DNA of 28,473 bases. Source: a virus (lineage: Duplodnaviria > Caudoviricetes). Location: positions 1 to 28,473 of IMG/VR virus record IMGVR_UViG_3300017912_001846. One strand, 5' to 3'. The notes below the pieces were generated by a model. It made no database searches and was not told the DNA's origin. It was given only the letters and a program-made list of their open reading frames with translations. Position numbers and translations under genes: made by a program. Shown here in pieces: positions 902 through 26,113 of this stretch (positions within the stretch are counted from its first letter, which is position 1; every line of letters begins with the position of its first letter).

Positions 902-1359
902 TGAGCTACTACGATGATCCCCCGTACATCTGCGAGGTTTGCGGCGAGCCGAATCAGTACGAGTGCGAAAAGTTCGACGGCCAGTGCGAACCCTGGATGA
1001 TCGCCATCGTGACCGAGAAGGAGGAGATCGTCGACAAGTTGATGACCGGACCGCACTACGATGCGTTCTGGTTCGTCTATCGGGTCGACGGTCACTGGCA
1101 CGGGACAAGCGACTTCGCGTACCTCAACGTCGGTGATGCTTGGGGCATTCCGCTTGTCTACGACAGCGAGGTGCTGCTCTCGAACTGCGACCGCATTGTT
1201 CGATCTGTCCTGAATGAACGGTCGCCTGATGCCGCAGCGCATGAGCCCATTCGTGCCTATGACTCCTACACTCTCCGCGCATGGGCGATGAACTGGTCAC
1301 GCGAACTAAGCGCTGACATCGTCCTGACGGGGAAGAACCGCACGGCTATCGGACCATGA
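901..1359 (+). CDS. Hypothetical protein, 152 aa, N-terminal Cys cluster (possible Zn finger)
   Basis: ATG at 901 overlaps the upstream TGA and the stop overlaps the dnaB ATG. Contains 'CEVC...C...C'. The track start at 436 overlaps the initiator and is unlikely. Confidence 0.7.
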   Translation: MSYYDDPPYICEVCGEPNQYECEKFDGQCEPWMIAIVTEKEEIVDKLMTGPHYDAFWFVYRVDGHWHGTSDFAYLNVGDAWGIPLVYDSEVLLSNCDRIVRSVLNERSPDAAAHEPIRAYDSYTLRAWAMNWSRELSADIVLTGKNRTAIGP

Positions 1360-2675
1360 AAGCAACGAACGCCGAGCGCGCGCTGCTCGGTTGCCTGTTG
1401 CTCGGAGAGTGGGACAACGAACTGACTGCGGACCTGTTCCACAGCGCAAGCCATGTCCGAATCTTCGGTCACATCAAGGCGTTGCACGAAGAAGGCATCG
1501 CGCCTGATGTGGTTACGATCTCATCCAGGCTGCTCGCCTTTGGAGAGGAGGAGCAGACTCGCGTCGGCGGGCTGGACTATGTTCAGAACCTACCGGAGAT
1601 GGTCCCGACCAGCAGAGGCTGGGATCGCTACGTTCGTGTCTGCGCTGATGCTGCAACGCGTCGCCGCATCCGAGTAGCGGCTGATGAACTTGCCGCAGCT
1701 TCCGCAGACCCTGACGAGGATCTGGTGTCGGTTCTGGACCGCGCCGAACAAGCCTTGTCGCAGTTGACTCCGCAAACGAACGTCGCTGCTGTCGATGCGA
1801 AGGAAGGTGCCGAACGTGCATGGGGCCTGCTGGAATCTAGGATGGAGGCGCGACAACGAGGTCAGACGATCTGCGCTTGCACGACAGGCATTAGTGACCT
1901 CGACGAACGACTGCTGCCAGCGCTTCAGGCAGGATGTCTGACGGTCGTTGCTGCTCGTCCTGGTATGGGCAAGAGCGTAATGGCGGCGCAATGGGCAATC
2001 AAGACATCGCAACGTCGTCAGGGTGTCGCGTTCTTCTCGTTAGAGATGGGTGTCGAGCAACTTACCCACCGAGGCTGGGCATCGCTGGCAACTGTTGACC
2101 TCGACCGATTCCTGTCAGGCGATCCGAACGTGTCGCAGCTACAGGACATCGAAGACGCTCACAGCATCTGGCACGACTTGCCGCTGTTCATCTGTGACCG
2201 AGGCGGAATCACCCTGAGCGAGATTCGGTCTATCGTGCGGCAGCTTCGCGTACAGATGCAGCGAGCAGGAACTCCGCTCGGCTTGATCGTCGTCGACTAT
2301 CTGCAACTGATGGGCGCTCCGCGACATCTGAAGAGTCGCGAAGAAGCAGTCGCGCACAACAGCCAAGGATTGAAAGCGCTCGCCAAGGAATGCGGGGTGC
2401 CGGTGCTGATGCTGTCTCAACTAAACCGGGGCGTCGAGTCCAGACCGAACAAGCGACCGCTCCTGTCGGATCTCCGAGAGTCAGGAGCAATCGAGCAGGA
2501 CGCCGATGCGGTCATGTTCCTCTATCGCCACGGCTACTACTTCCAGGACACCGACGATCCTGAGCATACCGAGTGCATCGTGGCGAAGCTGCGAGACGGA
2601 CAGTGCGGAACAGTCCATACCCAATTCCAAGGCCGGTACTCGCGCTTCCTCAAACTGGAGCGAAGGTATGCATGA
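1356..2675 (+). CDS. dnaB: Replicative DNA helicase (DnaB family)
   Basis: N-terminal 'AERALLGCLL', Walker A 'AARPGMGKS', 'FFSLEM', Walker B 'IVVDYLQLM', 'LSQLNR', 'SDLRESGAIEQDAD' and 'KLRDG'. Confidence 0.97.
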   Translation: MKATNAERALLGCLLLGEWDNELTADLFHSASHVRIFGHIKALHEEGIAPDVVTISSRLLAFGEEEQTRVGGLDYVQNLPEMVPTSRGWDRYVRVCADAATRRRIRVAADELAAASADPDEDLVSVLDRAEQALSQLTPQTNVAAVDAKEGAERAWGLLESRMEARQRGQTICACTTGISDLDERLLPALQAGCLTVVAARPGMGKSVMAAQWAIKTSQRRQGVAFFSLEMGVEQLTHRGWASLATVDLDRFLSGDPNVSQLQDIEDAHSIWHDLPLFICDRGGITLSEIRSIVRQLRVQMQRAGTPLGLIVVDYLQLMGAPRHLKSREEAVAHNSQGLKALAKECGVPVLMLSQLNRGVESRPNKRPLLSDLRESGAIEQDADAVMFLYRHGYYFQDTDDPEHTECIVAKLRDGQCGTVHTQFQGRYSRFLKLERRYA

Positions 2676-2684
2676 CGATCGCAG

Positions 2685-2740
2685 AAAAAAAAACCGAGGC
2701 AGGCTGAAACAAAAATCCTCAACCTTGCGTACTACGCGCA
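2685..2740 (+). promoter_or_regulatory. Conserved early-type promoter, copy 1
   Basis: A9 (2685-2693), GAAACAA (2706-2712), GCGTACTACGC (2727-2737), then leader 'cacggagagaacATG'. Confidence 0.7.
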
Positions 2741-2755
2741 GAACACGGAGAGAAC

Positions 2756-2965
2756 ATGACTACCGCAGACCTCCCAGCCGACGTTGCCCGCATGATTGCC
2801 GAGCTTCGTCCCTTCATCGTCCGTCGCATCCAGAGAGGACAGTCCTTCGAAGCTGCCCTTCGCGCCGCGCCGCAGGATGCTCACGAATACGCGCTGAATC
2901 GTCGCCAGCAGATCCTGGATGAGGTCTACGACCGACTTGCTGTTGCGAAGGAGGTGACCCAATGA
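2756..2965 (+). CDS. Hypothetical protein, 69 aa
   Basis: GGAG RBS, follows the conserved promoter, ATGA-coupled to the next gene. Confidence 0.75.
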   Translation: MTTADLPADVARMIAELRPFIVRRIQRGQSFEAALRAAPQDAHEYALNRRQQILDEVYDRLAVAKEVTQ

Positions 2966-3420
2966 TGACGATGCAACAGCAAGTGGAGGCGGGCTGGCGG
3001 CGAATCTCTCAGTTGGAGAACGAATCCGAAGACCGATTGCAGGTCATCAGAGATTTAGAAGAGGAACGAGACGACCAGCAGATCAAGATCGACAATCTGG
3101 AAGAGGAGGTCGAACGGCTGAAGGACTTGCTGACCTCCTACAAGGGCGAAGCCGCAGCCCTGCGGCAGGACAACGAAGAGCTTCAAGCGAAGGTCAAGCG
3201 TCTGGAGCACATGCCTGCCATACCCCTCGCCCGTGGGATGCCGGTGGACCTCAACGACCCGCAGGGCTTTGGCTACGCCCTGAGAGTCGTGGGCCAGAAG
3301 TATGCCGTCATCGACCCCGCCAGTTCGTGGTGGCAGATCACGGACCGCTGGATCGACGACATGACTACGGACGAGGACCGAGTCGTCCTCGCGAAGGCAC
3401 TGAAGGAGGCTTCGTCATGA
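2962..3420 (+). CDS. Coiled-coil hypothetical protein, 152 aa
   Basis: GGAGG RBS, long heptad-rich N-terminal half, ATGA overlaps on both sides. Confidence 0.8.
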   Translation: MMTMQQQVEAGWRRISQLENESEDRLQVIRDLEEERDDQQIKIDNLEEEVERLKDLLTSYKGEAAALRQDNEELQAKVKRLEHMPAIPLARGMPVDLNDPQGFGYALRVVGQKYAVIDPASSWWQITDRWIDDMTTDEDRVVLAKALKEASS

Positions 3421-4502
3421 GCGCAAGGATACGAGGACTCCTTGACACAGCGCAGGTCTACTCGACGCGCGACGAGTGGCTTGAAGGTCGCAAGGCATAC
3501 GCGGCAGCGCTTTCGTGCAGCGACATCGCGGCGATCCTGCTGGGAGAGGCGGGAGGAGCCTACTACGACGGCTGGACCGTTTGGGCGCGACAGCATGCGC
3601 CGGAGTTGCTGCCACCGGACGACAGCAACGCAGACAACGAAGACTTCCAACGAGGGCACGACTTAGAGCCTGCCGTGCTTCGGATGTACGAGCGAAAGCG
3701 CGAGGTGCAGTTATTCTGGCCATGGCAGACTCCGCACATCATCTTCGATGGGACAGACATCGGCGCGCCTTGGTTGCGTGGTAGTCCAGACCACTTCGCA
3801 GCGATGCTGCCAGGAGGCGAGATCGGTGGCGTTGAAGTCAAGACGACTCGCAATCACCATGAGTGGGCGACTGGTCAGAAGTATGTCGTCGAGTCCTGGA
3901 CTCCGAACGCCGCTCGTCTGGTGCCTCCTCGCGTCGCGTTGCAGGTCTACGGCTACCTCGCCATCACCGGTCTGCCGTGGTGGGATGTTGTCGCTTGCAT
4001 GATCTACCGAGGGCTCGAACTGCGGGTGGTACGCATCCTGCGGAACGAGGCGCTTCAGACGCGCATCATCGACAAACTTGACAAGTGGCGCGAGGTGCAT
4101 CTCATCCGAGGCGAGGCTCCTGCCTTCAGCAGTAGCGCCGTCTGCCGACAGTACAGCGACCGCAAGCAACTCAACCCAGAGAAGCGCATGCGGACAGCCT
4201 CGACCCGAGAGGCATGGCTGATGCGGCAGGTCGAGGACTACAAGAAAGCCGAGCGGGACAATCGACGTCGGGCCGATGCAGCGCGAAACGAGCTAGCGAG
4301 CCTGATAGGAGAAGACTACGGATGTCGCCTCGATGATCGTCCGAGCGCTCCGAAGGCTACACTCTCGGAGTCGTCGCGCGAGAGTGTCAGCTTGCGGCGA
4401 CTGCGAGCCGAAGCCCCGGACATCTACAACGAGTTGAAGCAGAAAGGCATCATCACCACCTCGCGTTCGCGTCGTCTGAAAGTCTCAGGACTGCACGAAT
4501 AG
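3417..4502 (+). CDS. YqaJ/lambda-exonuclease family recombination nuclease
   Basis: Motifs 'EWLEGRK', 'CSDIAAILLG', 'RGHDLEP', 'SPD', 'VEVKT' and 'QVYGYLAITG'. Start placed at ATG 3417 behind AAGGAGG. Adjacent to a RecT-like gene. Confidence 0.9.
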   Translation: MSARIRGLLDTAQVYSTRDEWLEGRKAYAAALSCSDIAAILLGEAGGAYYDGWTVWARQHAPELLPPDDSNADNEDFQRGHDLEPAVLRMYERKREVQLFWPWQTPHIIFDGTDIGAPWLRGSPDHFAAMLPGGEIGGVEVKTTRNHHEWATGQKYVVESWTPNAARLVPPRVALQVYGYLAITGLPWWDVVACMIYRGLELRVVRILRNEALQTRIIDKLDKWREVHLIRGEAPAFSSSAVCRQYSDRKQLNPEKRMRTASTREAWLMRQVEDYKKAERDNRRRADAARNELASLIGEDYGCRLDDRPSAPKATLSESSRESVSLRRLRAEAPDIYNELKQKGIITTSRSRRLKVSGLHE

Positions 4503-4548
4503 TTCTGACCTGGACGACGTACACGCATCGCAACCCAAGGGAGCAATC

Positions 4549-5331
4549 ATGACAACTGAACTATCGCTTTTCACCAGCAACGAGACGCTGCAACACGGCA
4601 CCGAGGTCGCGCGCGTCTTCGCTAACTCAGGGCTGATGCCTGACGCGCTGCGGAAGAACGGAGACGCGCTGGCGAATGCCATCATCTGCTTCGAAGTCGC
4701 CCGCATGATCAACGTGCATCCGTTGACGGTCATGCAGGAGGTCTACTTCGTCCACGGGACGCCGTCGTTCTCGTCGAAGTTCAAAATCGCCCTCGTCAAT
4801 CGGTCAGGCGTCCTGGAGAATCCAATCGACTTCGAAGAGGAGCGCGCCGAGAATGGCTACCTCCAAGCAGTCGAGGCGTTCGCTGTTCTCAAAGCGACTG
4901 GAAAGCGCGTCTCGTTCCGAGTCACGATGCAGATGGCTCAGGGCGAAGGCTGGACCAAAAACCCGAAGTACAAGTCGATGCCGGAACTGATGCTTCGCTA
5001 TCGCGCTGCTTCGTTCCTGATTCGCCTGTACTGCCCCGAGGTGCTGCTGGGTCTGGGACTTAGCCTTCGGACGACTGAAGAGCTTATGGACGACGACAGG
5101 CCCATTCAACAGCCTATCGAAACGACTGCAACGGTCGTCGAGCCGCAGCCTGACCCTCTGACGCGAGCGCTCGGCATGGATGACAGCGAGTCGTTGACTC
5201 CTGACGAAAATTGGCTCACCGACCAGGAGGAGGTCGATTCCTTGCTCGACGCCTGCTTGGGTCCGGTGTCGGAGCCAGTGCAAGAGAAGCAGTCGCCTGA
5301 ACTGCCGCTCAACCCTCCTGCGGACTGGTAG
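4549..5331 (+). CDS. RecT/Red-beta-like single-strand annealing protein
   Basis: 'SGLMPDAL', 'HPLTVMQEVYFVHGTPSFSSKF' and 'MPELMLRYRAASFLIRLYCPEVLLG', with an acidic C-terminal tail. Paired with the exonuclease. Confidence 0.8.
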   Translation: MTTELSLFTSNETLQHGTEVARVFANSGLMPDALRKNGDALANAIICFEVARMINVHPLTVMQEVYFVHGTPSFSSKFKIALVNRSGVLENPIDFEEERAENGYLQAVEAFAVLKATGKRVSFRVTMQMAQGEGWTKNPKYKSMPELMLRYRAASFLIRLYCPEVLLGLGLSLRTTEELMDDDRPIQQPIETTATVVEPQPDPLTRALGMDDSESLTPDENWLTDQEEVDSLLDACLGPVSEPVQEKQSPELPLNPPADW

Positions 5332-10060: not shown

Positions 10061-13000
10061 TCAAAGTTCCTCTTCGATGGTCACCGTGCCGATTCGCAAA
10101 ACCTCACCCAGCCCTTCGTCTCCGACGACGTTCTCCAGCCGAGAAGCAGTTACGATCCGACCGTACAACGACTCGTGGAGGTGCAGATGATGCAGGGTGT
10201 CAGGAGTCCCGCGCGGAACCGTCGGCAGATACACCACCGGACGGTTACTGCCGTTTAGTTCATCAACGAGGGCATCCATCTTGAATGCGGTGTCAAACGG
10301 CGTAGCAATCGGTTCAGCGCCGCCAGTCGTCGTTCCTGTGAGGTAGTCGGGCACCGGATTCGTTGTCGGCGGATTAGGGAAGATCGAATAGCTGTCAACG
10401 CCTTCTCGCCAAGCGACCTGAACAGACCTGCGAGAACCGCCTTCTCGACGACTTACGCGGGAGCCGTTGCGACGTGTGGTGAGCGTCGTGTTCGGTTGTC
10501 TCGACAGGACGCGACCTCGACTGTACTGCTTGCCGAAGATGGCAATCGGTCCCAACAACGCCTGACCGATTTCGAAGTAGCCGTCTGCTGTCGTCTGCGC
10601 GTTGATACGCAAGCGAAGCCAGCGGTACTCGCGGACGACATTGTGGAGGATGATAAGCAGGCGAGGAGACCACAACTCCAGGGTGCCGGATGCGTCTTCC
10701 GTGCCGTCCATGGTGTCGCAGAAGAACTCAGGACGAACCGTTGTCTCGTCGGTGTACGAGCCTCCAGTATGTCGCGTGATGCGGCGATACTTGTTCGTGT
10801 CGAGGGCAAGCGTTCCGCCTGCGAACTCGTTGCGCGCGATGTAGTGATCAGCGTCGGTGCTGGTGCCAGTGTTGACCTTGATGACATCACCGACGCGGGT
10901 GTACGCGAGTCCGGTCTTCCCGTGTGCTGCGTCGAAGGACATCAGCGTCGTCGCGCTGCCGCTGTGAGTGATGCCTGACAAGCTGCCTGTGCGGAAGTTG
11001 ATGCCAGCCAGATACAGCGCCCAAGTCGTCGAGCCGAGACGCGTGTCGGCACCACTCAGCCCGCTGACATCCCAGACGATGTCGTGCTGTGTCTCGTCAG
11101 TGCTTCGCCACTTGCGAGCAGGAGAAGGAGACACAGCCGGGTCGATGGCTTCGACCGGGTACTGGTACGCGGTGTCGATGTTCCAGACTTCGCCTTCGTA
11201 ACAGGGCCCGTCTACAGCAGCGACCTTCACTCCGTTGTCGATGCCAATCGGGAACCGGCTGATTGGACGAGGGAATTGTGGCTTCCCTGCTGCCCAGCCT
11301 CCGCGTCGCAGAGCAGCGACGAGTGATGTGCGCGCCTGCATGAGCAGCCATGTCACATCGGTCGCAGCTTGATTTGGTGCGCCGAACTCCAGGACAGGAG
11401 CATACGAGCCGCTACCGGTTTGCAGCGTCGATGTCGTTGGTCCGACAGTCCAGGTACGCTTCGTCAGGCTCTTCGTTCCGATCAGTCGGTAGAACACGCG
11501 CACGATCCCGTCGTTGTTTCCTGCTCCGGTCGGGCTGCGAATACCGACGCGGACTTCGACGCCCGCTGTCATGTCTACCGTGACATCGCCAATGGTGCTG
11601 CCAGCGTTGACATCTACAACGCGGAAGCCAGTGGTCGTCATGTTGAAGCGTACGCGAAATCGCTCGTTAGCGTCTCCGTGCGTGATTGCGACGTTGATGT
11701 TGTCGTTCGACAGCGACCCACCGGACGCAACAGTCACCGCAAAATGAACGTCGAACGGACACTCAACCTTCGCTGTGTTCAGCGCCCATGAACAATTGTC
11801 TGTCCAATAGAGGCTACTGGAGCTAGCTGCTGTCTGGACTCGGTAACCAGATGTCGTAAACGTCTCGGTCGGCGTACCAGTCTTCGTCTCGGAAACAGAG
11901 GAAGAATAGCTTGGCGTCTCGAAGGGGAGCCACGCCTTCCCCATCGCAGCGCGATTTGAGATTCCGCGCTCAGCGTCAGTGTCGGACGGCATAGTCACAT
12001 TGCTGCTGCCGCCTAAATAGGTGCATCCGAGGCTATCGGTGTCGATGGTGCTGCTTCCCGCGCTATCGAACTTGGAGATGAGGAGCGCCCGACCTTCCAG
12101 GAACGTAGCGGTCTGATGATCTCGGTTGATGTTGAGATTGCCGCTTGCAGGCTGGTTGTACGGTCCATTGTAGTCCTCATCGATGAAGACCATGCGGGCC
12201 CATGTGCCGCCTTCGTCAGTGCTGACGCTTGCCCTGTATTGCGTACCGCTCGACGCGCCGAACATGTACCATACACCGTCTTCGTCAATGAAGCCGATTT
12301 GACCTGTGACACCACCGATAGTCGCAACGGCAGTCACTCCTGTCAGATCCTCGTATGCGGAACCGATGTCGCGTGTTTTCTCTCCAGCCGATTCAGTCAA
12401 GACTACCTGAAACCCGCCGCCCTGCTTTGGGTAGATGATCGGGAATGTCGCGTCGGGGTTCCCTGCTGCTGTGCTCCATTGCTTGACGGTTGTGAACGTC
12501 GCACCATTGTCGTCGCTTGCTAGCTGAACGGGCTCGTTGTTGCCGCTGGTGTCGACTAGCGCGGAGATCATGAGGATCTGACCGTTGCTGTACCCAACAT
12601 GAAGCGGCGCGATGGTGTACGTGCTGGTCGAGATGCTGTCTACGAGGGCGAAGCTGCTAGCGACAGACCATGTGTCGCCGCTGTCCGTTGAGCGTTGCAC
12701 AGCGACCTGAGCCGTCGAGGTCGAGGTGTCGACAACCCAATAGAACAGCAGAATCGTTCCGTCTGGGAGTTCAAGCAACGCTGGATAGAGCTTGTCGTGC
12801 TGAACCGCAGGAGTGATTGTCGCTTCGGTTGTCCAGGAGCCTCCAGGCACCAACGACTTGACGGTGATGACGTCGTCGGCATTGCCGGTCAAGGCTGAGC
12901 GATAAGCGAGAAGAACCTTGTTCGTCTTCAGCGTGATCGCTGTTGGGCTGCCGATCTCCGTTGTGTTCAGGTTCGGGATCTGGGCAATCCATTCGAAGCC

Positions 13001-13330
13001 TGTGATCACGTTGTAGCAATCCCACGCCTGCACATCGCTGTCGCCCTGGTCGTACCAATACAAGCCGCCGCCGACTCCATCGAGGGATGGATAGCCGCCC
13101 CGTGCAGCCTTGATGCGAAGCTGCTTGTTCGCTGACTGTTGTCCAGTGACGTTGAACGTCATGTTCGAACGTGGAGAGTCCTGCGACAGCGCGACGCCTG
13201 GGATCGGCCCTGCTTGCGTGTAGTCGCTCGGCGCTGTGGAATCGTCAGTCGCTGTGATAGCGCTCGTCTTGATGCGCTCGTCGTGGATGAGTAGCCCACG
13301 GTATGCGCTAGGGCTGATGTCGCTGGCCAT
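10061..13330 (-). CDS. Large minor tail protein with BNR/Asp-box repeats and probable C-terminal distal-tail-like domain, 1089 aa
   Basis: Asp-boxes STDSGDTW, SDDNGATF and STDEGGTW. Immediately follows the tape measure. Confidence 0.7.
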   Translation of the reverse strand: MASDISPSAYRGLLIHDERIKTSAITATDDSTAPSDYTQAGPIPGVALSQDSPRSNMTFNVTGQQSANKQLRIKAARGGYPSLDGVGGGLYWYDQGDSDVQAWDCYNVITGFEWIAQIPNLNTTEIGSPTAITLKTNKVLLAYRSALTGNADDVITVKSLVPGGSWTTEATITPAVQHDKLYPALLELPDGTILLFYWVVDTSTSTAQVAVQRSTDSGDTWSVASSFALVDSISTSTYTIAPLHVGYSNGQILMISALVDTSGNNEPVQLASDDNGATFTTVKQWSTAAGNPDATFPIIYPKQGGGFQVVLTESAGEKTRDIGSAYEDLTGVTAVATIGGVTGQIGFIDEDGVWYMFGASSGTQYRASVSTDEGGTWARMVFIDEDYNGPYNQPASGNLNINRDHQTATFLEGRALLISKFDSAGSSTIDTDSLGCTYLGGSSNVTMPSDTDAERGISNRAAMGKAWLPFETPSYSSSVSETKTGTPTETFTTSGYRVQTAASSSSLYWTDNCSWALNTAKVECPFDVHFAVTVASGGSLSNDNINVAITHGDANERFRVRFNMTTTGFRVVDVNAGSTIGDVTVDMTAGVEVRVGIRSPTGAGNNDGIVRVFYRLIGTKSLTKRTWTVGPTTSTLQTGSGSYAPVLEFGAPNQAATDVTWLLMQARTSLVAALRRGGWAAGKPQFPRPISRFPIGIDNGVKVAAVDGPCYEGEVWNIDTAYQYPVEAIDPAVSPSPARKWRSTDETQHDIVWDVSGLSGADTRLGSTTWALYLAGINFRTGSLSGITHSGSATTLMSFDAAHGKTGLAYTRVGDVIKVNTGTSTDADHYIARNEFAGGTLALDTNKYRRITRHTGGSYTDETTVRPEFFCDTMDGTEDASGTLELWSPRLLIILHNVVREYRWLRLRINAQTTADGYFEIGQALLGPIAIFGKQYSRGRVLSRQPNTTLTTRRNGSRVSRREGGSRRSVQVAWREGVDSYSIFPNPPTTNPVPDYLTGTTTGGAEPIATPFDTAFKMDALVDELNGSNRPVVYLPTVPRGTPDTLHHLHLHESLYGRIVTASRLENVVGDEGLGEVLRIGTVTIEEEL

Positions 13331-17009: not shown

Positions 17010-17575
17010 GCGTCTACCTCCCGCCAGTTGTCTCGGACCCAGGACTCCGTATCAGCGTCTTCCGGTGCAGCGTCCACAGCCGCCTCAACGCGATCGAGCG
17101 GTGCGCCAATCGTCAGCGCGAGGTCTGCGATGTTGATGGTCCGCTTCGGAGCTAGCGCAGTCGTGCCGACATGCTCGTCGATCGGTGCCGGGATGCTCCT
17201 CTGCTGTTGTGGCTTGTCGAGGTCTACATGCACGAAGCACCGACCGGGCTTCGCCTTCGTCTCGATGATCTTGACGTTGAGGTCGCGTCCTGCCTGGAGC
17301 AACTCGTATCGCTTCAGCAACCACTTGATTCGCCGAACGTGCTGGAGCGTGAACGGCGGCTTCGGCTGTCCTGCCTCTGTGAACGGCTGACCCTTCAGGC
17401 TGACGAAGTGGACCTTGCCAGGACCGTTCGGATCTGGGTTTGGAATCTCGCGCACGATGCGCTTGAACCCTGGCCAGATGCGGCGCAACTCCGCTTCGAT
17501 AGCGAGGACTTGCTCTCCGTAGACAGGATGCGGCACGAAGTCCAGTTCAGCGATGTCGATAGAGTGGGAGCCCAA
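17006..17575 (-). CDS. Hypothetical protein, 189 aa, C-terminal HTH-like segment
   Basis: TTG start behind GGAGG, 'INIADLALTIGAPLDRVEAAV', ATGA-coupled to the chaperone gene. Confidence 0.65.
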   Translation of the reverse strand: MGSHSIDIAELDFVPHPVYGEQVLAIEAELRRIWPGFKRIVREIPNPDPNGPGKVHFVSLKGQPFTEAGQPKPPFTLQHVRRIKWLLKRYELLQAGRDLNVKIIETKAKPGRCFVHVDLDKPQQQRSIPAPIDEHVGTTALAPKRTINIADLALTIGAPLDRVEAAVDAAPEDADTESWVRDNWREVDA

Positions 17576-17627
17576 AGCAAACCCTCCGATGTGAATGCCT
17601 GCACAACAGGCAGCGAGAGCCTATCGC

Positions 17628-17680
17628 AAAAAAAGTTCGTCGTCTCAGCAATAGACCTGCGGGCCCCGCGTAGACACCAA
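17628..17680 (+). promoter_or_regulatory. Conserved early-type promoter, copy 3
   Basis: A7 (17628-17634), GCAATAG (17648-17654), GCGTAGAC (17668-17675), CAA-rich leader with AGGAG. Confidence 0.7.
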
Positions 17681-17696
17681 CAACACAGGAGCCCTC

Positions 17697-17915
17697 ATGT
17701 CTATGCAAGCCCTCATCGCCAAAGAACGCGCTCGCCTGCAACAGCAGATCGACAGCCTGACTGACAAGATCGACTACCTCTGCGTCGAGATGTCTGACGA
17801 CACTCTCAGCAATGCGGACCGCGCTGACCTCCGCCACGACCTGTACCTCGCGCGCAATCTGCGTCGCACGTCGCGTCGCCTGCTGTCGGAGACGACAAAT
17901 GGGTGGCTCGCATGA
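17697..17915 (+). CDS. Hypothetical helical protein, 72 aa
   Basis: AGGAG RBS after the conserved promoter. Coiled-coil pattern. Confidence 0.75.
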   Translation: MSMQALIAKERARLQQQIDSLTDKIDYLCVEMSDDTLSNADRADLRHDLYLARNLRRTSRRLLSETTNGWLA

Positions 17916-17995
17916 CCTCGGCACTCTTCTTCATCATCGCCCTGCTCTTGATTGTCCTCTGCATCGTCGAGCATCGACGCGAGCAGAATCGATGA
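17912..17995 (+). CDS. 27-aa single-pass membrane microprotein (MTSALFFIIALLLIVLCIVEHRREQNR)
   Basis: Not in the ORF track. ATGA overlaps at both ends. Hydrophobic stretch followed by a charged tail. Confidence 0.7.
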   Translation: MTSALFFIIALLLIVLCIVEHRREQNR

Positions 17996-18471
17996 ACATC
18001 TTCGCCACCGACCCGTGCCCGATTCGCAGCGCGACTGTTCTTGCCAACCGACATGTCGTCAAGATGGCGCTGGAGAGCGCGCAGATGCTCTCGACAGCGC
18101 TTCGCGCAGCAGGAGTGACCGACTCCAGGCTCTACCGTGCAGCGTACCAAAAGCACCCTTGCACGCTGTGGGCTGGACAGACTCGCGCGAACTTCCTGTG
18201 GCTCTGCGACCATGCCGACGCGCTATGCGCTGAGAAGCTGTATCGCTACCCCAACAAGCCGCCGCACAAGTCGCAGACCGTCATCGACCTTGCGCGTTCT
18301 CTTGCGTCTCATGTGCCTGCCGGCGACCTGCTGCCGTTCGCGCAGGCAATGCCAGACGAGCATCGACACCAATGCGCGCACCTTGCCTATCGTCGCTACT
18401 TGCGCGCGAAGTATGACTCCTGGAGTCGCCCGCCTCGCTTCGGACGTCGCCTCGACTACCTGGAAGTCTGA
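17992..18471 (+). CDS. Pyrimidine dimer DNA glycosylase / endonuclease V (DenV)-like protein, 159 aa
   Basis: 'MNIF...HVVKMALESAQMLSTA...LYR...HPCTLWA...NFLWL...ALCAE..YRY...HKS...FAQAMPDE' is the characteristic pattern. Start is taken as MNIF at 17992. Confidence 0.85.
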   Translation: MNIFATDPCPIRSATVLANRHVVKMALESAQMLSTALRAAGVTDSRLYRAAYQKHPCTLWAGQTRANFLWLCDHADALCAEKLYRYPNKPPHKSQTVIDLARSLASHVPAGDLLPFAQAMPDEHRHQCAHLAYRRYLRAKYDSWSRPPRFGRRLDYLEV

Positions 18472-18476
18472 GCTTC

Positions 18477-18532
18477 AAAAAAAAAAACGAAGCAGCAGAA
18501 ATAGAAGATCGACGCTCGCGTAGTACGCGCAC
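18477..18532 (+). promoter_or_regulatory. Conserved early-type promoter, copy 4 (leaderless transcript)
   Basis: A11 (18477-18487), GAAATAG (18498-18504), CGCGTAGTACGCG (18517-18529), ATG at 18533. Confidence 0.75.
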
Positions 18533-18646
18533 ATGATCCTCAACCTACTGGTCACGATGGCGCTCATCCTCTTCGCTGAAGGCGAAGGCACGCGCCCGAT
18601 CCAGGCGCTCGCGCCTATCACTACTGACGACAAGGAAGTCGCATGA
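18533..18646 (+). CDS. 37-aa microprotein with hydrophobic N-terminus (MILNLLVTMALILFAEGEGTRPIQALAPITTDDKEVA)
   Basis: Not in the ORF track. Starts at the predicted +1 with no SD, and its stop overlaps the next ATG. Confidence 0.6.
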   Translation: MILNLLVTMALILFAEGEGTRPIQALAPITTDDKEVA

Positions 18647-18897
18647 CCCGTACCCACTTAGACGAGGTGCTTGACGCGCTTCGGCGCGCGATGGAAGAGC
18701 ACGGCTACCCCAACGAGTTTAGCGCGCGATGGCTGGCCGAGGAGCAAGGTTGCTGTTTGACCGTGCGGCAGATCCAGCGGGTCAGCAGGCACTGGCCAGC
18801 AGTCACGCTAGCGATGGACGACAGCACCCGGAGGCACGCGACCTATCTGAACGGGACATGGTCCTGCGAGGATCCTTTCAACAGGACAGACACATGA
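18643..18897 (+). CDS. Small HTH-like protein, 84 aa
   Basis: AAGGA RBS, 'FSARWLAEEQGCCLTVRQIQRV', ATGA-coupled. Confidence 0.7.
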   Translation: MTRTHLDEVLDALRRAMEEHGYPNEFSARWLAEEQGCCLTVRQIQRVSRHWPAVTLAMDDSTRRHATYLNGTWSCEDPFNRTDT

Positions 18898-19115
18898 ACA
18901 GGCACTTCGAAATCCACATCGACAATCGCGTCGAAGTCTACGCCGACATCAACCTGACCCCGCCCGAGCAGCGCGGTGGACCCTGGGATCTGACTGGCTA
19001 CTCCGAAGCTCATCGGTCAGGCATTTCGACGCACCTTCTGACCGCTGACATCAGGACGATGCAGGAGTGGTATGCGAAGCACGTCGTCGAGGTGGCGGGA
19101 GATCAGGAGCGATGA
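18894..19115 (+). CDS. Hypothetical protein, 73 aa
   Basis: ATG 18894 behind AGGA. ATGA overlaps on both sides (track start 18729 is unlikely). Confidence 0.7.
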   Translation: MNRHFEIHIDNRVEVYADINLTPPEQRGGPWDLTGYSEAHRSGISTHLLTADIRTMQEWYAKHVVEVAGDQER

Positions 19116-19414
19116 ACTCCTGGACCGCCATCGTTGAGCAAGCAGCTCGCACTGTTGCCCGTGGCAGAATTACAGAGCGCATCGTCGAAAGATGGGGTCG
19201 CGGTGAGAACGATATCGTCGTTTGTTGGGTACAGCATCCAGACTGGATTCGCGTCGTTGTCTGCGAAGGTCCGCGCTGGAGCGCGCACACGATTGACGAT
19301 GCCGACTTGTCAAGCGTGCGAGAGACGCTGTACGAGCTAGCAGCGTCGCGCATGCTCTACAACGCGTCAGCATGTCTGCCGTCGCCGTTGGGAGCTTGTT
19401 GTGGCACTTCATGA
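19112..19414 (+). CDS. Hypothetical protein, 100 aa
   Basis: ATG 19112 overlaps the upstream stop. 3' end uncertain. Confidence 0.55.
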   Translation: MNSWTAIVEQAARTVARGRITERIVERWGRGENDIVVCWVQHPDWIRVVVCEGPRWSAHTIDDADLSSVRETLYELAASRMLYNASACLPSPLGACCGTS

Positions 19415-19491
19415 CCGCGTCAACCTGCTGTGGATGCAGGAGCAGGACGACCGAGAGAGTTTGTGCGAATGGGCTGTTGTGCCTGCTCCAG

Positions 19492-19544
19492 AAAAAATCG
19501 CCCCGTGGGGAAATAGAGTTTCGGGGGCGGCGTATTACGCGCAC
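19492..19544 (+). promoter_or_regulatory. Conserved early-type promoter, copy 5
   Basis: A6 (19492-19497), GAAATAG (19510-19516), GCGTATTACGC (19530-19540), leader 'aacaacggagaacaacATG'. Confidence 0.75.
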
Positions 19545-19560
19545 AACAACGGAGAACAAC

Positions 19561-19770
19561 ATGACGAAGCACCCTGCCACCATGAACGCCCTTTGGAACT
19601 CGACTGGCCGCACGGCGATTATCGAGGGTCAGATTCGGACCATCGTGTCGCGTCGTCTCTGCTACGGAGCGTCGATTTCGCTTACGCTCGACCGCCCTCT
19701 TGACGGTTGCTCTTCGCGGCTGTTCACCGTCGAGCCGTCGAACCTTCATGTGGTCTGTCTCGTCAGCTAA
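19561..19770 (+). CDS. Hypothetical protein, 69 aa
   Basis: ATG 19561 has the conserved GGAG leader and promoter. Ends before the terminator. Confidence 0.7.
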   Translation: MTKHPATMNALWNSTGRTAIIEGQIRTIVSRRLCYGASISLTLDRPLDGCSSRLFTVEPSNLHVVCLVS

Positions 19771-21357: not shown

Positions 21358-22142
21358 CGCTTGCTACCACCGCTGAAGGTGTATCGACCAGGACCGTTGC
21401 CCGCAGTAATGCTGAGGATCGGGTGCGAGTTGACGCTGCCGCGCTCGTTGGCGTCCATAGTGCCCGACTCGTTGCCGTCGTACCTGAACTCCAGCGTCTC
21501 CCAGGTCTTCGCGTAAAGTCCTGAGTTGTCGTTCGGGTTCCAGTAGTAGTCGCGCAGGCGCGCGTATTTGGAATCGCCGATGGTGCTGTAGAAGTCGTTA
21601 TAGATGAGGTGCAGCGTCAGGTAGATGTGGCAGAGGCGAACCTGCCATGCATCGAAGATGAGATGCGGACGGCGACCCTGAGCGATCAGGTTCGTCTGAA
21701 CAACCACGTTCGCATGCTCGCGCTGCTTCTGGTACGAGGTGTCGTCCAGGGCTTCGATGATGTCTGCTAGCTCGCTGTGGATGTCTGTCAGGTCGGTGTC
21801 AGTGATGACTGGACGGTAGATGGTGCGACACAGGTAAGCAGGAACAGGAGCCAGCGGGATCGCTGTACCGTCGAGGGTCGGCGTCCACTTGACGAGCCAA
21901 TCGTCAGCGAATGCGGTGTCGGTTCCGATGGTTGCCGAGGTCAGTGTGTAGGTACTCGGCGCGGCAGCGGTTGCCGAGGTGCCCGCTGCCACTACGTCCG
22001 TCGCGCCTCGCAGGACTTGAATCGTCACCGCAGACGGGGTCTGCTGAGTGCCAGCGAGGTCGTACACGTCCAGCGACAGCGTATTGTCGATGCCACGCTG
22101 GATGAAGTACGGGAGCTTGTGTCGGGCGATGTAGTCAGACAT
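21354..22142 (-). CDS. Putative head-tail adaptor with N-terminal Ig-like domain, 262 aa
   Basis: Beta-rich N-terminal half plus helical C-terminal half ('ITDTDL...YLTLHLIY...KY'). Position after the head genes. Confidence 0.55.
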   Translation of the reverse strand: MSDYIARHKLPYFIQRGIDNTLSLDVYDLAGTQQTPSAVTIQVLRGATDVVAAGTSATAAAPSTYTLTSATIGTDTAFADDWLVKWTPTLDGTAIPLAPVPAYLCRTIYRPVITDTDLTDIHSELADIIEALDDTSYQKQREHANVVVQTNLIAQGRRPHLIFDAWQVRLCHIYLTLHLIYNDFYSTIGDSKYARLRDYYWNPNDNSGLYAKTWETLEFRYDGNESGTMDANERGSVNSHPILSITAGNGPGRYTFSGGSKR

Positions 22143-22154
22143 AGTTTTAGGAAC

Positions 22155-22210
22155 GGGTGCCGGGGTGCAGCATCATCAAAGGGAGCGATGAGAGCCGCAA
22201 CCCAGCACCC
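22155..22210 (-). other. Long intergenic RNA hairpin
   Basis: About 22 bp in three helices, including G-U pairs that form only on the - strand. Loop CUCCCUU. Confidence 0.75.
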
Positions 22211-22218
22211 TAAATGAC

Positions 22219-22464
22219 CTAGCCGGTCAACTTACCGAGAGAGGTTTCAGCCTTCGCCTTCGCCGCTTCTGCCTTCTGAATGGCAGCAGCGACCTTCGCA
22301 GCTTCAGCGTAGTCTTCAGCGCCGACAGCTTGACGTAGAGCAGCGCGCAACTGAACGAGGTCGGCTTTCGCCTTAGAACGCTTCAGGAGGAGCGAACCGG
22401 CATCGGCCTTGCTTGCACCCTTCGAAGCAGCCTTCGTCGTCGCCTTGGGCTTCTTGGTAGGCAT
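22219..22464 (-). CDS. 81-aa Lys/Ala-rich protein with UVR (UvrB/UvrC)-like motif
   Basis: Basic N-terminal tail, then 'LRAALRQAVGAEDYAEAAKVAAAIQKAE'. Confidence 0.65.
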   Translation of the reverse strand: MPTKKPKATTKAASKGASKADAGSLLLKRSKAKADLVQLRAALRQAVGAEDYAEAAKVAAAIQKAEAAKAKAETSLGKLTG

Positions 22465-22472
22465 GAATCAGC

Positions 22473-22826
22473 CTACGAGAGAGCGATGGTGAAGACGAAT
22501 CCGAGAGTCCAAGTCAGACCGGTGTCTTCGACGAAGACGAGCGCCGCCTCGTTCTGGTTGACAGTAGCGAGGGTCGTGCTGCTGTCAGGCTGCTTGATGG
22601 TCAGGTTCTCGGATGCGTCAGCAGCGTTGACGATGAGGAACCAATCGCCCTTCGTCGCCTTGCGGAGATCAACTTCGCGCGCAGACCCACCCGGATCGAG
22701 CTTCTGGACATGAGCGTCTCGGTCCAGGAGAACGCGAGTCGCGCCGAGGGTTTCCGTGTTGAAGCCCCCGTCGAGAACCAGTCGTCGGACGAGCTTGAAC
22801 GGGTTTCCGCCCTTGAAAGTAGCCAT
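22473..22826 (-). CDS. Putative capsid decoration/head fibre protein, 117 aa
   Basis: GAGGAG RBS and small beta-sandwich pattern ('GDWFLIVN...LTI...W'). Head region. Confidence 0.55.
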   Translation of the reverse strand: MATFKGGNPFKLVRRLVLDGGFNTETLGATRVLLDRDAHVQKLDPGGSAREVDLRKATKGDWFLIVNAADASENLTIKQPDSSTTLATVNQNEAALVFVEDTGLTWTLGFVFTIALS

Positions 22827-22872
22827 GTTGTCTCCTCTTCCCGCCCACTGACGGGCCTTTCAGGATGTTTGA

Positions 22873-23199
22873 TTAGCGCTTCGGGCCGCGCTCCAGCCTT
22901 CGATCCATGCGCGTCGCGCATCGACGAACGATCTTGTCAGCATACGCCGGGTCGTTGCCAGCCTCGACGAGTTGTCGCTTCATGCGCCCCATCGTCTCGC
23001 GCATGCCAAGCACCTCGCCCCCGTTGGGCTTGTGCTTCATGTTGACGCGAATCCCGCCGTCTTCGTGCTGCATGCTGAAGTGCTGACCAGCCCTGACGAT
23101 GCGCGGCGTGATGTTGTCGAGCCAGTCGTCAGCCTCGCCGGGCTTTGCTGGTTCGTGCTGCTGCGCGACCTTCGTCTCAGCGGTGTCTTGGAATCCCAT
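22873..23199 (-). CDS. Hypothetical protein, 108 aa
   Basis: TGATG-coupled to the upstream gene. Confidence 0.7.
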   Translation of the reverse strand: MGFQDTAETKVAQQHEPAKPGEADDWLDNITPRIVRAGQHFSMQHEDGGIRVNMKHKPNGGEVLGMRETMGRMKRQLVEAGNDPAYADKIVRRCATRMDRRLERGPKR

Positions 23200-24176
23200 C
23201 AGCTATTGCTCCGAGCCTTGTCGAGTGCGACGTGGAGACGGTTCTGCAAAGCAGGACTCGCGCTCAGAGCCTCCAGGGCTGCATCGCGCCCTCGACCCAG
23301 GTTCTCGCCTTCGAACTTCAACCACGCGCCCGCCTTGACGACGACAGCCGAAGCCATCGCCATGTCAAGCAGATCAGCCGGATCAGTGTCGAAGGTGTCG
23401 AAGTTGTCAGCCGGGACTTGCGGCTGCGGCTGTGACTCAGCGGCTCCAGCGTGCGAGACCTGCTGGACCTGCGGAGACCGAAGCCCCATCCGACGCGTGA
23501 TCTCGCGCTCGTATACCGCCCAATCCTCCTCCATCGCCTCGATCTTCGCGCGCTGCTTGTCGATCTTGTGGTTGAGAGAAGGGTTCGCAGAAGCAGCCTG
23601 CTCGAACCGGCTCAGGCGGTTTCGCTCGATCCCCATCTTCTGCATGAAGTACTCGCGGACGAACGGATGAACGAGGTTCGTGTAGCGAAGGAAGGCATGA
23701 AAGGCGAGCAACGCTGGCTGAACGTCGTCGCTGTTCCACATGATCGAGCCGTTGGGCGTGACGAGTGCCTCTTGCCCTGGTTCGACGTACCACTCACCGC
23801 CGGTCGTCGTCGTGTAGAACTTGTTGTAGTGCATGTACGGACCCAACGCCGAATCGTTGGGGTACAGGACGCGCGCACCCGCTTCGGCATGACCGTTGAG
23901 CATGCCCCGCATATGCTGGATTCGGACCGGCTTAGCGTAGCCAGGATCCTTGACTCCGTTGACACCCGGCTTGCCGATGGCGCGCTTCGGGCGTGGCAAC
24001 CATCCGTACCGCTGCTTCGTCTCCGGGTCCACTTCCATCGAGTGATACCAGGACTGCTCGTAATGCACGAAGATGTATGTCTCGGCAGGACGAGGACCGC
24101 CGCGCTGAACCGGCAGCCCTTCCGGGGCGGCTTGTTCGTGAGTCTGCGCTTGCGGCTGAGTGAATCGGCGTTGCAT
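23199..24176 (-). CDS. Post-capsid protein, ~325 aa, with C-terminal RecA-CTD-like domain
   Basis: ATG 24176 behind GGGAG (alternative GTG 24233). Ends in 'DLLDMAMASAVVVKAGAWLKFEGENLGRGRDAALEALSASP'. No Walker motifs. Confidence 0.8.
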   Translation of the reverse strand: MQRRFTQPQAQTHEQAAPEGLPVQRGGPRPAETYIFVHYEQSWYHSMEVDPETKQRYGWLPRPKRAIGKPGVNGVKDPGYAKPVRIQHMRGMLNGHAEAGARVLYPNDSALGPYMHYNKFYTTTTGGEWYVEPGQEALVTPNGSIMWNSDDVQPALLAFHAFLRYTNLVHPFVREYFMQKMGIERNRLSRFEQAASANPSLNHKIDKQRAKIEAMEEDWAVYEREITRRMGLRSPQVQQVSHAGAAESQPQPQVPADNFDTFDTDPADLLDMAMASAVVVKAGAWLKFEGENLGRGRDAALEALSASPALQNRLHVALDKARSNS

Positions 24177-24248
24177 GGTTGCTGCTCCCTTGTTGCGTGA
24201 TGGTGTAGGAGGTGCCCAGCCGCCGCCGAGCACCTCCCCGAGACGCTA

Positions 24249-25181
24249 TCAGGCGTCCGAGATGACCTCGACACCGCGCAGGTCTTCGCGCTCGACGACC
24301 GCCGGGTACATGTTGAGGATCGCCTCGGTCATGCCGTTGGTCGCGTCACGGTTCCGCTCGACCCAGGCGACACCGAAGTCGGCCATGATGTCAGCAGGGT
24401 TGATCATCAGGCTGGCGACAACGCGCCGCCAAGCTCGCAGGGTGTACGCGAAGCAGCCGAAGCCGAACATCGCACCACTCCGATCCGCGCCACTGTTGAC
24501 CGTGGTCACGCTGTCGGACTGCATGAAGTTGATGTTGTTCCACGTTCCCTTCATGCCAGGACCGCTGAGACGCAACATCTCGGGAGTCGCCGGGACGAAC
24601 TGAATCGCACCGGGCTCGGCGCGAAGGCTGCTCTGGAAGTCGTTGAACTGCGTCGGGTGGGCGACGAAGTAGTAGGGACCGGGAACAGACTGGCTGTTCA
24701 ACTGGAATTGAGCGTCGTAGACGCTGTCGACATCCAGATCGACACCGCTGCCGGGGCCGACGTCGTTGGCAAGCGACGGGAACAACGCGCAGACGAGGTC
24801 GGTCAGGGTCAGGCCGATGCTCTGCTGCAAGCTGTTGATGACCTGCTGCATCTGCACCGGACCACCGTTGATGGCGAGCAGATCGGTCGGCTGGTACTGG
24901 AGCACATAGCGAGCCCAGGTCAGCGAGAACGAGCCGGTCGTGTACGCCGTGTTGCTCTGGCCACCGCTGGTTTCGGAGGAGGCAGCAGCAGCAGCCTGCG
25001 GGACCGCATCGAGAGTCACATCAACGGTATCGCTACCAGTGACACCATCGACGTCGATAAACTGCATGACGCTGCGAAGGTCGGTAGGGTCGAAAAGCTG
25101 CGCGAGCAGCATGTCGGACAGGACAGACGCGGACTGACCGCCGTTCGTCTGGAGTAGCGCGTGAGTGATCTCATTAGCCAT
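24249..25181 (-). CDS. Major capsid protein, 310 aa
   Basis: Follows the scaffold. Start MANEIT behind GGAG. HK97-like size and pattern ('YYFVAHPTQFNDF', 'VERNRDA', C-terminal 'RGVEVISDA'). Confidence 0.85.
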   Translation of the reverse strand: MANEITHALLQTNGGQSASVLSDMLLAQLFDPTDLRSVMQFIDVDGVTGSDTVDVTLDAVPQAAAAASSETSGGQSNTAYTTGSFSLTWARYVLQYQPTDLLAINGGPVQMQQVINSLQQSIGLTLTDLVCALFPSLANDVGPGSGVDLDVDSVYDAQFQLNSQSVPGPYYFVAHPTQFNDFQSSLRAEPGAIQFVPATPEMLRLSGPGMKGTWNNINFMQSDSVTTVNSGADRSGAMFGFGCFAYTLRAWRRVVASLMINPADIMADFGVAWVERNRDATNGMTEAILNMYPAVVEREDLRGVEVISDA

Positions 25182-25280
25182 GAGTACGGGCTCCGGTTCG
25201 ATTGAGTGATGACGCAAGGTGCGTCGTGGAAACTCTTTCGCCTACACCGGCTAACGGACCGGAGACCGATGGCTCTGCTT
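25182..25280 (-). promoter_or_regulatory. Structured 5' leader of the capsid gene that sequesters the RBS
   Basis: CUCCGGU (25264-25258) pairs with ACCGGAG (25197-25191), which contains the SD. Internal GACGCA/UGCGUC hairpin. Confidence 0.55.
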
Positions 25281-25286
25281 CGTCAA

Positions 25287-25315
25287 GCAGTACACCATCC
25301 CCTGAGCGCTGTCAA
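25287..25315 (-). promoter_or_regulatory. Sigma70-type promoter for the capsid gene
   Basis: TTGACA (25315-25310), 17 bp, TACTGC (25292-25287), immediately after the scaffold stop. Confidence 0.55.
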
Positions 25316-26113
25316 CTACGAGTTCGCGTCTCGCCACCGCATCCAGTCTTGCCAGTCCTTCGACCCGCCGACAAGATTGTAGTCGCCGTTCGGCCACAGA
25401 TCGACCTTGCCGACCTTCCAGCGACCGCGCGCCTTGCTGAGTGCAATCTTCTCGTCGGTCCACTCGGTCTTCGGTGCCTTGAAGGTCTGGACGGTGCCTG
25501 TGCTCTTGCCCTGGTTGGTCTGCGGGGCAGGCTCGTTGTCGCTGTGGACTGGCAGTTCGTTCTCGGCGCTGACTTGTGCCTGCGGATAGTGAGGAGCCAT
25601 CAGCGGGTTGGACTTCGTCGAATCGCTGTGCAGCCACGTACCGAAGTCAGGCAGTTCGTCTGCGACGACGCCTTGCTGCTTCAACTCTCCGATGTGGTCG
25701 TCGAACTCTCGGCGGGCCATGCGTCGGACGGACGGGTGCGTGAAACCTCCGCCAGCTTCAAGGAAGACGAGATCCTGCTTGTGATTCCGCTGCATTGTGG
25801 CGATCTGGTTCTGGAGCGCGTCAACTTGACCCAACTGCTCCGTCGCAGCAGACAGTTCGGAGGTGAGTTTCGCAACGCGGGCTTCGGCGTTTCGCATGCG
25901 CTGTCGCTCTTTCTGCATCTGGTCCCACGCTGACTGATGCCACCCATCCGGAGCTTTCGTCTGAGTCCATCCGTCAGGAGCATCAGCGGTCGGGTCGTAG
26001 AGCGCGCCCGATGGCTGATGTCCATTGGAGGCAGGCGTCGAAGGCTGTCCTGCTACCTCGATTCGCATGGTCTGAGGTGCCGTCTGCGAAGTCTGCGTCG
26101 TCTCTTCACTCAT
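25316..26113 (-). CDS. Capsid scaffolding protein, 265 aa
   Basis: Between portal and capsid. Disordered N-terminus, coiled coil and Pro/Gln-rich linker. Confidence 0.75.
   Translation of the reverse strand: MSEETTQTSQTAPQTMRIEVAGQPSTPASNGHQPSGALYDPTADAPDGWTQTKAPDGWHQSAWDQMQKERQRMRNAEARVAKLTSELSAATEQLGQVDALQNQIATMQRNHKQDLVFLEAGGGFTHPSVRRMARREFDDHIGELKQQGVVADELPDFGTWLHSDSTKSNPLMAPHYPQAQVSAENELPVHSDNEPAPQTNQGKSTGTVQTFKAPKTEWTDEKIALSKARGRWKVGKVDLWPNGDYNLVGGSKDWQDWMRWRDANS

Follow-up and report, generated by a model that had tools for sequence, protein, structure and literature searches.

DNA-binding modules of the HeH, SAP, and Rho-N types are already known as add-ons to phage genes in the post-capsid slot. 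Lambda gpFI, a protein of 132 aa with a C-terminal head-binding part, has its gene immediately downstream of the one for the major capsid protein (MCP). One report (PMC13595911) describes gpFI as bridging the capsid and the terminase-DNA complex. RecA's C-terminal domain (RecA_C; PF21096; PDB 1aa3, 2reb, 7jy6) is a textbook domain that is usually deemed inseparable from RecA. According to another paper (PMC4666392), K286 and K302 are conserved DNA-binding lysines, the mutation of which impedes strand exchange, while K280 and K282 are less conserved; a cryo-EM preprint (10.1101/2025.04.21.649820) calls the action of the domain alone an open question.

In the phage studied here, the domain acts as a movable part. 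The protein encoded directly after the MCP gene (P0001) ends in RecA_C but, unlike RecA, has no ATPase core, and the domain is carried on a phage head protein via a linker of 31 aa. The position of the gene is that of the gpFI gene, but P0001 is larger (325 aa), its binding to the MCP is only predicted, and the part presumed to bind the head is N-terminal; bridging of capsid and DNA is proposed for P0001 by analogy with gpFI. With the HeH, SAP, and Rho-N add-ons it shares a small module of DNA-binding type, a flexible tail, and the slot after the MCP gene, but the fold and origin of the module are different, and none of these three domains has a Pfam match in P0001. What is new is probably the use of RecA as a source of modules, in a family that has no name and probably binds the capsid; the add-on modules themselves are known. 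Literature searches, which covered few subscription journals, found no work on orphan or fused RecA_C in phages and nothing relevant on post-capsid HeH or Rho-N add-ons, on plasmid or megaplasmid RecA with an extra RecA_C, or on Gln300. The fusion is known from one phage cluster; within this limit it is a natural test of the RecA C-terminal domain by itself, and the exchange between a basic tail and a DNA-binding domain is the first functional handle on the unnamed post-capsid family.

Genomic Setting of the Fusion Gene

The phage is marine and tailed, and the fusion gene is part of its head module. The gene and its neighbours lie in the window (the whole 28,473-nt stretch that was analysed; Table 1), and the gene order is terminase, portal, probable scaffold, MCP, fusion gene, then head-tail and tail genes with a tape measure protein. 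The gene upstream of the fusion is identified as the MCP gene because a comparison of its family profile with the MCP annotated in phage DSL-LC06 gave an hhalign probability of 98.3% (E 1.1e-14) and because of the terminase-portal-scaffold-MCP order; the match of the family to phrog_247 is weak (E 0.04 in two of twelve members). Small genes of similar look to the 108-aa gene that follows the fusion gene come next in relatives too. No promoter or terminator match was found within 22000-25500, and searches of GTDB with MCP or N-domain patterns found no prophage relative.

An assembly error does not account for the fusion, since contigs from four studies besides the one marked as the possible source (runs X3, X5, X6, and X10) cross the junction. 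An RNA-library contig (X19) also crosses it, with DNA carry-over being possible. Sixteen of the 17 listed strain variants in the gene are synonymous; one of the 17 lies past the linker, which is counted against the preferred explanation given below.

Table 1. Positions of the fusion gene, its parts, and its neighbours in the window, and of two megaplasmid genes used for comparison.
Feature	Position	Strand	Basis
Whole gene of P0001, 325 aa: MCP-partner domain (predicted), linker, and RecA_C	23199..24176	-	Translation; Pfam; strain variants
N-terminal family domain, aa 1-235	23472..24176	-	AlphaFold2 model; fold searches; 96 family representatives
PGVNG motif, aa 70-74, predicted core of MCP interface	23955..23969	-	Conservation in 95 sequences; lowest-error contact pairs
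Q/P/D-rich linker, aa 236-266, without K/R	23379..23471	-	Composition; low pLDDT in full-length model
Detached RecA C-terminal domain, aa 267-318	23223..23378	-	Pfam, PDB search, profile score, residue alignment
Shine-Dalgarno-like purine run before ATG at 24176	24185..24191	-	Consensus resemblance only
Portal protein, 520 aa	26110..27672	-	phrog_104, E 6.4e-05
Probable scaffold, 265 aa	25316..26113	-	Gene order only; no Pfam/PHROG match
MCP, 310 aa, predicted binding partner	24249..25181	-	hhalign to DSL-LC06 MCP; weak PHROG match; complex prediction
Next head-module gene, 108 aa	22873..23199	-	ATG overlaps stop codon of fusion gene
Complete RecA, Pseudomonas megaplasmid CP136011.1	L154:1910-3367		Second diverged RecA_C
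Complete RecA, Pseudomonas megaplasmid NZ_CP143488.1	L155:1916-3388		Second diverged RecA_C

The RecA C-Terminal Domain

The initial annotation had recognized a RecA C-terminal domain at the end of the gene, quoting D268-L318 (P0001 has seven further residues), and the profile searches bear this out. The sole family match in P0001 is PF21096, which covers aa 268-315 with an E of 2.6e-10 and 40.7 bits, the cut-off being 27. When the last 66 aa were compared to the PDB with phmmer, 25 sequences had E<=1 and the best 22 were RecA; the alignment to Escherichia coli RecA 273-315 has no gaps. On an independent profile made from 24 RecA domains of viral contigs, with P0001 excluded, the real tail scores 52.3 bits and the best of 2000 shuffled tails 7.8. 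The linker before the domain has no K/R and five D/E. The full-length AlphaFold2 model of P0001 was discarded (pLDDT 47); its RecA_C region, where the alignment has just two rows, has a pLDDT of 35-50. The RecAs nearest to the domain are of mixed lineages and at most 22 of 52 residues are identical, so the domain is not assigned to a donor lineage.

K281, W285, R295, and R297 of P0001 correspond to K286, W290, Q300, and K302 of E. coli RecA, and the domain retains K286, G288, W290, G299, and G301, with R at 302 as a basic residue in common with RecA. K280 and K282 are both Ala in P0001, and the 38 RecA domains from viral contigs used for comparison mostly lack them as well; the K297 position is N, and the net charge of the 52-residue domain is -1. 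The loss of K280 and K282, the N at 297, and the net charge suggest that any DNA binding by the domain is possibly weak.

The N-Terminal Domain

The N-terminal 235 aa of P0001 belong to an unnamed and widespread family of post-capsid genes. A search of 1.84 billion representatives had 119 matches, 96 of which are the N-domain family (representatives at 50% identity, a few of them truncated). No Pfam or PHROG family matches the N-terminal part, no annotated phage has an N-domain match, and ESM Atlas returned nothing usable for aa 1-235. The AlphaFold2 model of the N-domain, with 29 sequences in the alignment, has a pLDDT of 89.8 and a pTM of 0.82, and consists of an alpha/beta globular part (approximately aa 21-165) and a long helical hairpin (aa 174-229). 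Foldseek found no match to the model in the PDB at E<=0.001, and in BFVD a single uncharacterised marine virus protein (E 2.5e-4, TM 0.45); VIA-align gave matches to the hairpin only (aa 163-235, Z at most 8.2). No fold of a known capsid decoration protein, such as lambda gpD or P74-26 Dec, was matched in the wide search, which was dominated by the hairpin at aa 163-235, and the absence of a solved match does not prove that the fold is new. A comparison of gpFI to the family by hhalign gave a probability of 0.3%, in a weak test that had a single sequence on one side and that also missed the two MCPs. Residues G71, N73, and G74 of the PGVNG loop are nearly invariant in 95 sequences.

A scan seeded with an MCP alignment gave 47 viral loci, partly redundant. 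In 43 of these the MCP gene is immediately followed by the family gene, and the remaining four have less than 200 nt of DNA left. The linkage reaches down to an MCP identity of 31%; the loci behind the seed had first been found via the N-domain, a bias towards the link among the closer loci, and eight distant loci (31-41% MCP identity) were outside the seed. Phage DSL-LC06, with a more distant MCP, has no family gene in the 10.5 kb around its MCP gene, which counts against the preferred explanation. The N-domain protein is a conserved and fixed part of the head module.

Predicted Docking on the Major Capsid Protein

The complex of MCP and N-domain, predicted with RecA_C left out, has an ipSAE of 0.87, and the best of three controls has 0.00. 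Contact agreement between runs is at least 78%, with a partner pLDDT of at least 84. In the calibration of the prediction tool, 116 of 157 solved complexes attain the mark, and so do two of 215 mismatched pairs, figures that are only roughly valid for the alignments used here. A pass by means of a memorised structure is less likely because the N-domain has no solved relative by sequence or by Foldseek.

The surest predicted contacts are between the PGVNG loop and MCP residues 129-138 and 293-297. In the authors' reading, with HK97 names assigned from sequence, these residues would correspond to the terminus of the spine helix, a loop rich in Gly, and a strand of the P-domain. One preprint (10.1101/2022.09.09.507160) locates the G-loop close to where the spine helix ends, and in phage P74-26 the G-loop touches both the decoration protein and the E-loop of the neighbouring subunit, according to a further paper (PMC6775164). 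Because the contacts are at the spine-helix end and the G-loop is placed near the decoration protein, the predicted docking site is probably on the outside, and the N-domain is predicted to dock on the MCP, likely at the outer surface of the shell. The predicted site is also the surface that takes the E-loop of the neighbour in an assembled HK97-type shell, and may be partly hidden there. Conservation of interface residues compared to other residues is flat on the two proteins (0.41 versus 0.40 and 0.62 versus 0.60), which is counted against the prediction.

C-Terminal Tails of the Family and Gain of RecA_C

The survey of homologues for the same or swapped C-terminal modules found RecA_C in one of 96 family representatives, that of the phage's own cluster, mostly K/R-rich tails in the relatives, and one tail with a zinc-finger-like motif. 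The other representatives score at most 1.2 bits for RecA_C. The closest relatives by MCP (73-74% identical) end in K/R-rich tails, and in a quick tree of 34 rows the branch of P0001 lies within a clade whose members bear tails; by sequence comparison, the domain is a gain of this phage lineage. The tails of 94 relatives have a median length of 38 aa, and 47 of them hold at least five K/R in 12 residues, compared to 8.5% of body segments of the same length. The remaining 47 fall short of this threshold, and one tail is acidic; being basic is thus no requirement for a tail. The basic patch is absent in P0001, where the linker has no K/R. The zinc-finger-like motif is in P0043 (279 aa; zf-C2H2 E 0.078, under the cut-off), from a cluster of two sequences. 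The range of tails suggests that the C-terminus of the family is a slot for a DNA-binding element, although half of them are below the basic threshold. Counter to the basic-tail trend, the family member P0123 (320 aa) has a strongly acidic tail of 124 aa with 43 D/E.

Scans of IMG/VR for other orphan copies used exact patterns, which would miss diverged RecA_C copies. All 43 proteins from the GQG pattern are RecA or RecA-like; of the 21 loci from the GRG pattern this phage alone scores (62.8 bits, the others at most 10.3), and a search with the RecA_C domain alone gave this phage only. ESM Atlas returned RecA_C clusters of 55-73 aa for aa 262-325, with scores <0.9 and some of them viral. Short RecA_C proteins were considered as stand-alone genes but not confirmed as such: the best 120 of 335 were read, of which 87 have the end motif of the core upstream and the rest are RecA-like. 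Since they read as RecA fragments, the small RecA_C proteins of databases are no precedent for the fusion. P0112 (114 aa), with a head-protein-like start followed by RecA_C, was also set aside as a likely chimera, a single sequence on a 549-bp contig; its unrelated N-terminus resembles Mu gp36-type head-tail proteins.

Detached Copies of RecA_C

Compared to copies attached to a core, P0001 has Q300 replaced by R, N304 by A, and the aromatic residue at 308 by A. Position 300 is R or K in all five detached copies and Q in all 120 short RecA fragments compared, and the five detached copies all lack N304 and the aromatic residue at 308; the five are a biased set, as two were chosen by likeness to P0001 and two were found via P0133. 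Four second RecA_C copies tethered by a linker are on RecA proteins, two of these from Pseudomonas megaplasmids. P0118 and P0133 are RecAs with a second RecA_C after a long linker, and P0144 is listed beside them among RecAs with a second copy. The megaplasmid RecAs have 485 and 490 aa, with the second RecA_C approximately 160-170 residues after the first, and at 30.0 and 30.6 bits both extra domains exceed the Pfam cut-off. These copies resemble that of P0001 in being diverged, in following a low-complexity linker, in having R or K at 300, and in the loss of N304 and the aromatic residue at 308, but the megaplasmid carrier is a complete RecA that keeps its own RecA_C, unlike P0001. There is no sign of direct descent between them and P0001 (14-16 of 52 identities in the two copies counted).

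A broader reading of these likenesses is tentative and, on balance, rather doubtful. RecA_C may have been freed more than once and become a portable dsDNA grip tethered by a linker, with a basic residue at 300 and without N304 and the aromatic residue at 308. On megaplasmids it would be a second grip on RecA; in the phage it would be mounted on a capsid-docking family with a new fold, which would capture DNA to be packaged and so form a type of packaging chaperone unrelated to gpFI.

Function and Alternative Explanations

The preferred explanation, which is given about an even chance of being right, is that P0001 is a capsid-docking head protein, likely on the outer surface, with a RecA_C that likely binds dsDNA without sequence preference on a flexible linker, and that it may work like gpFI, to which it shows no similarity. 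The N-domain would dock the protein onto procapsids, and the linker would display RecA_C as a weak, non-specific grip on dsDNA, with many copies per shell giving avidity. The grip would bring DNA or the terminase-DNA complex to the shell. RecA_C would then be a folded substitute for the basic tail of an ancestor, with no role in recombination or SOS, and the DNA-binding tail at the C-terminus would be interchangeable across the family. The suggestion in the initial annotation of a virion or internal protein with a DNA tether thus holds in part: the tether gains from the basic tails of relatives in the same place and from the retained DNA-contact residues, while an internal location is less likely given the predicted outer site.

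There is practically no chance that P0001 is, over its full length, a highly diverged RecA, a reading to which its 325 aa and its ending in RecA_C would lend themselves. PF00154, the ATPase core with Walker A and B, is absent from P0001 and from the window but was found in all 14 control genomes; the confident model of the N-domain has no RecA fold match by Foldseek or VIA-align; and the N-domain is common to 95 relatives that have no RecA_C. These results refute the reading and agree with the view that the N-terminal part is unrelated to RecA and that the C-terminal module alone was captured. The RecA_C profile match is significant and no RecA-fold core is predicted in the N-terminal part, so neither of the outcomes that the initial annotation had set against itself arose. 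Nor was recA found in the record of the phage (G000) and five related records, one of which is the same phage and overlaps and four of which are fragments. That the domain is a decoy for RecA partners that alters the host SOS response, as had also been proposed, is very improbable and found no support. The phage has other repair genes (RecT, YqaJ, a pyrimidine-dimer glycosylase, and an alkylation-repair gene), which would suit a decoy, and candidate partners presumably include RecX, DinI, LexA, and others. Partners of the RecX, DinI, and LexA type bind the groove of the RecA filament, however, and since this requires the core, it counts against a decoy. The late position of the gene, fixed in the head module, and the predicted MCP binding also count against it, as does the lack of an acidic RecA tail; Q300, N304, and the aromatic residue at 308, nearly fixed in true RecA, are all changed, and the latter two changes oppose close mimicry.

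The remaining alternatives accept the fusion but differ on what it does. P0001 is unlikely to be a decoration or cement protein that stays on the mature virion, with an outward tail, basic or RecA_C, that binds extracellular DNA or other polyanions on particles and cell surfaces instead of the genome at packaging: solved decoration folds gave no match, in the search filled by the helical hairpin, and a small conserved gene two places downstream may, by its position, fill that role. It is improbable that the N-domain serves as a chaperone of assembly by covering the site on MCP subunits where the E-loop docks, with RecA_C localising assembly to replicating DNA or being incidental. The overlap of the predicted site with the surface for the neighbour's E-loop and the strict linkage to the MCP are in keeping with a chaperone, but a scaffold-like gene is already present upstream and the distant MCP relative has no family gene. 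Little probability is likewise given to RecA_C as a functionless passenger, a recA fragment that recombination placed on a disordered tail able to tolerate it. The restriction to one phage cluster, the loss of several DNA-contact lysines, the free variation of family tails, and two substitutions that segregate in the first helix of RecA_C are what would be expected of a passenger. Yet at <=42% identity to the RecAs compared, the domain has kept its frame, hydrophobic pattern, and K286, G288, W290, G299, G301, and R302; its GC3 of 0.70 is close to the 0.77 of the remaining gene sequence; it has the substitutions common to detached copies; and it is intact in each of the five full-length sequences, from the cluster or the query, that were aligned.

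Other Genes of the Phage

The head module also has a very Lys/Ala-rich gene of 81 aa (22219-22464, minus strand), and similar small basic genes are present after the family gene in three other loci (L017, L111, and L115). This gene may supply the function of the basic tail separately. Its UVR-like look was not upheld, as Pfam gave no significant match. An island of plus-strand ORFs (17171-19770) breaks the minus-strand tail module and includes a pyrimidine dimer DNA glycosylase (17812-18471; PF03013, E 1.8e-07). Genes on the plus strand at 1356-5331 encode a DnaB helicase, a YqaJ-type exonuclease, and a RecT annealing protein; the phage therefore has its own RecET-type recombination pair, with no recA in the records examined. 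In the tail region, a protein of 1089 aa (10061-13330, minus strand) has BNR repeats (PF13088, E 2.5e-10) and is possibly a sialidase-like propeller for host attachment. Upstream of the terminase gene, another contig of the same phage (L153:5322-9047) has alkylated-DNA repair, ParB-like, and glucosyltransferase-like genes, a set that hints at DNA modification.
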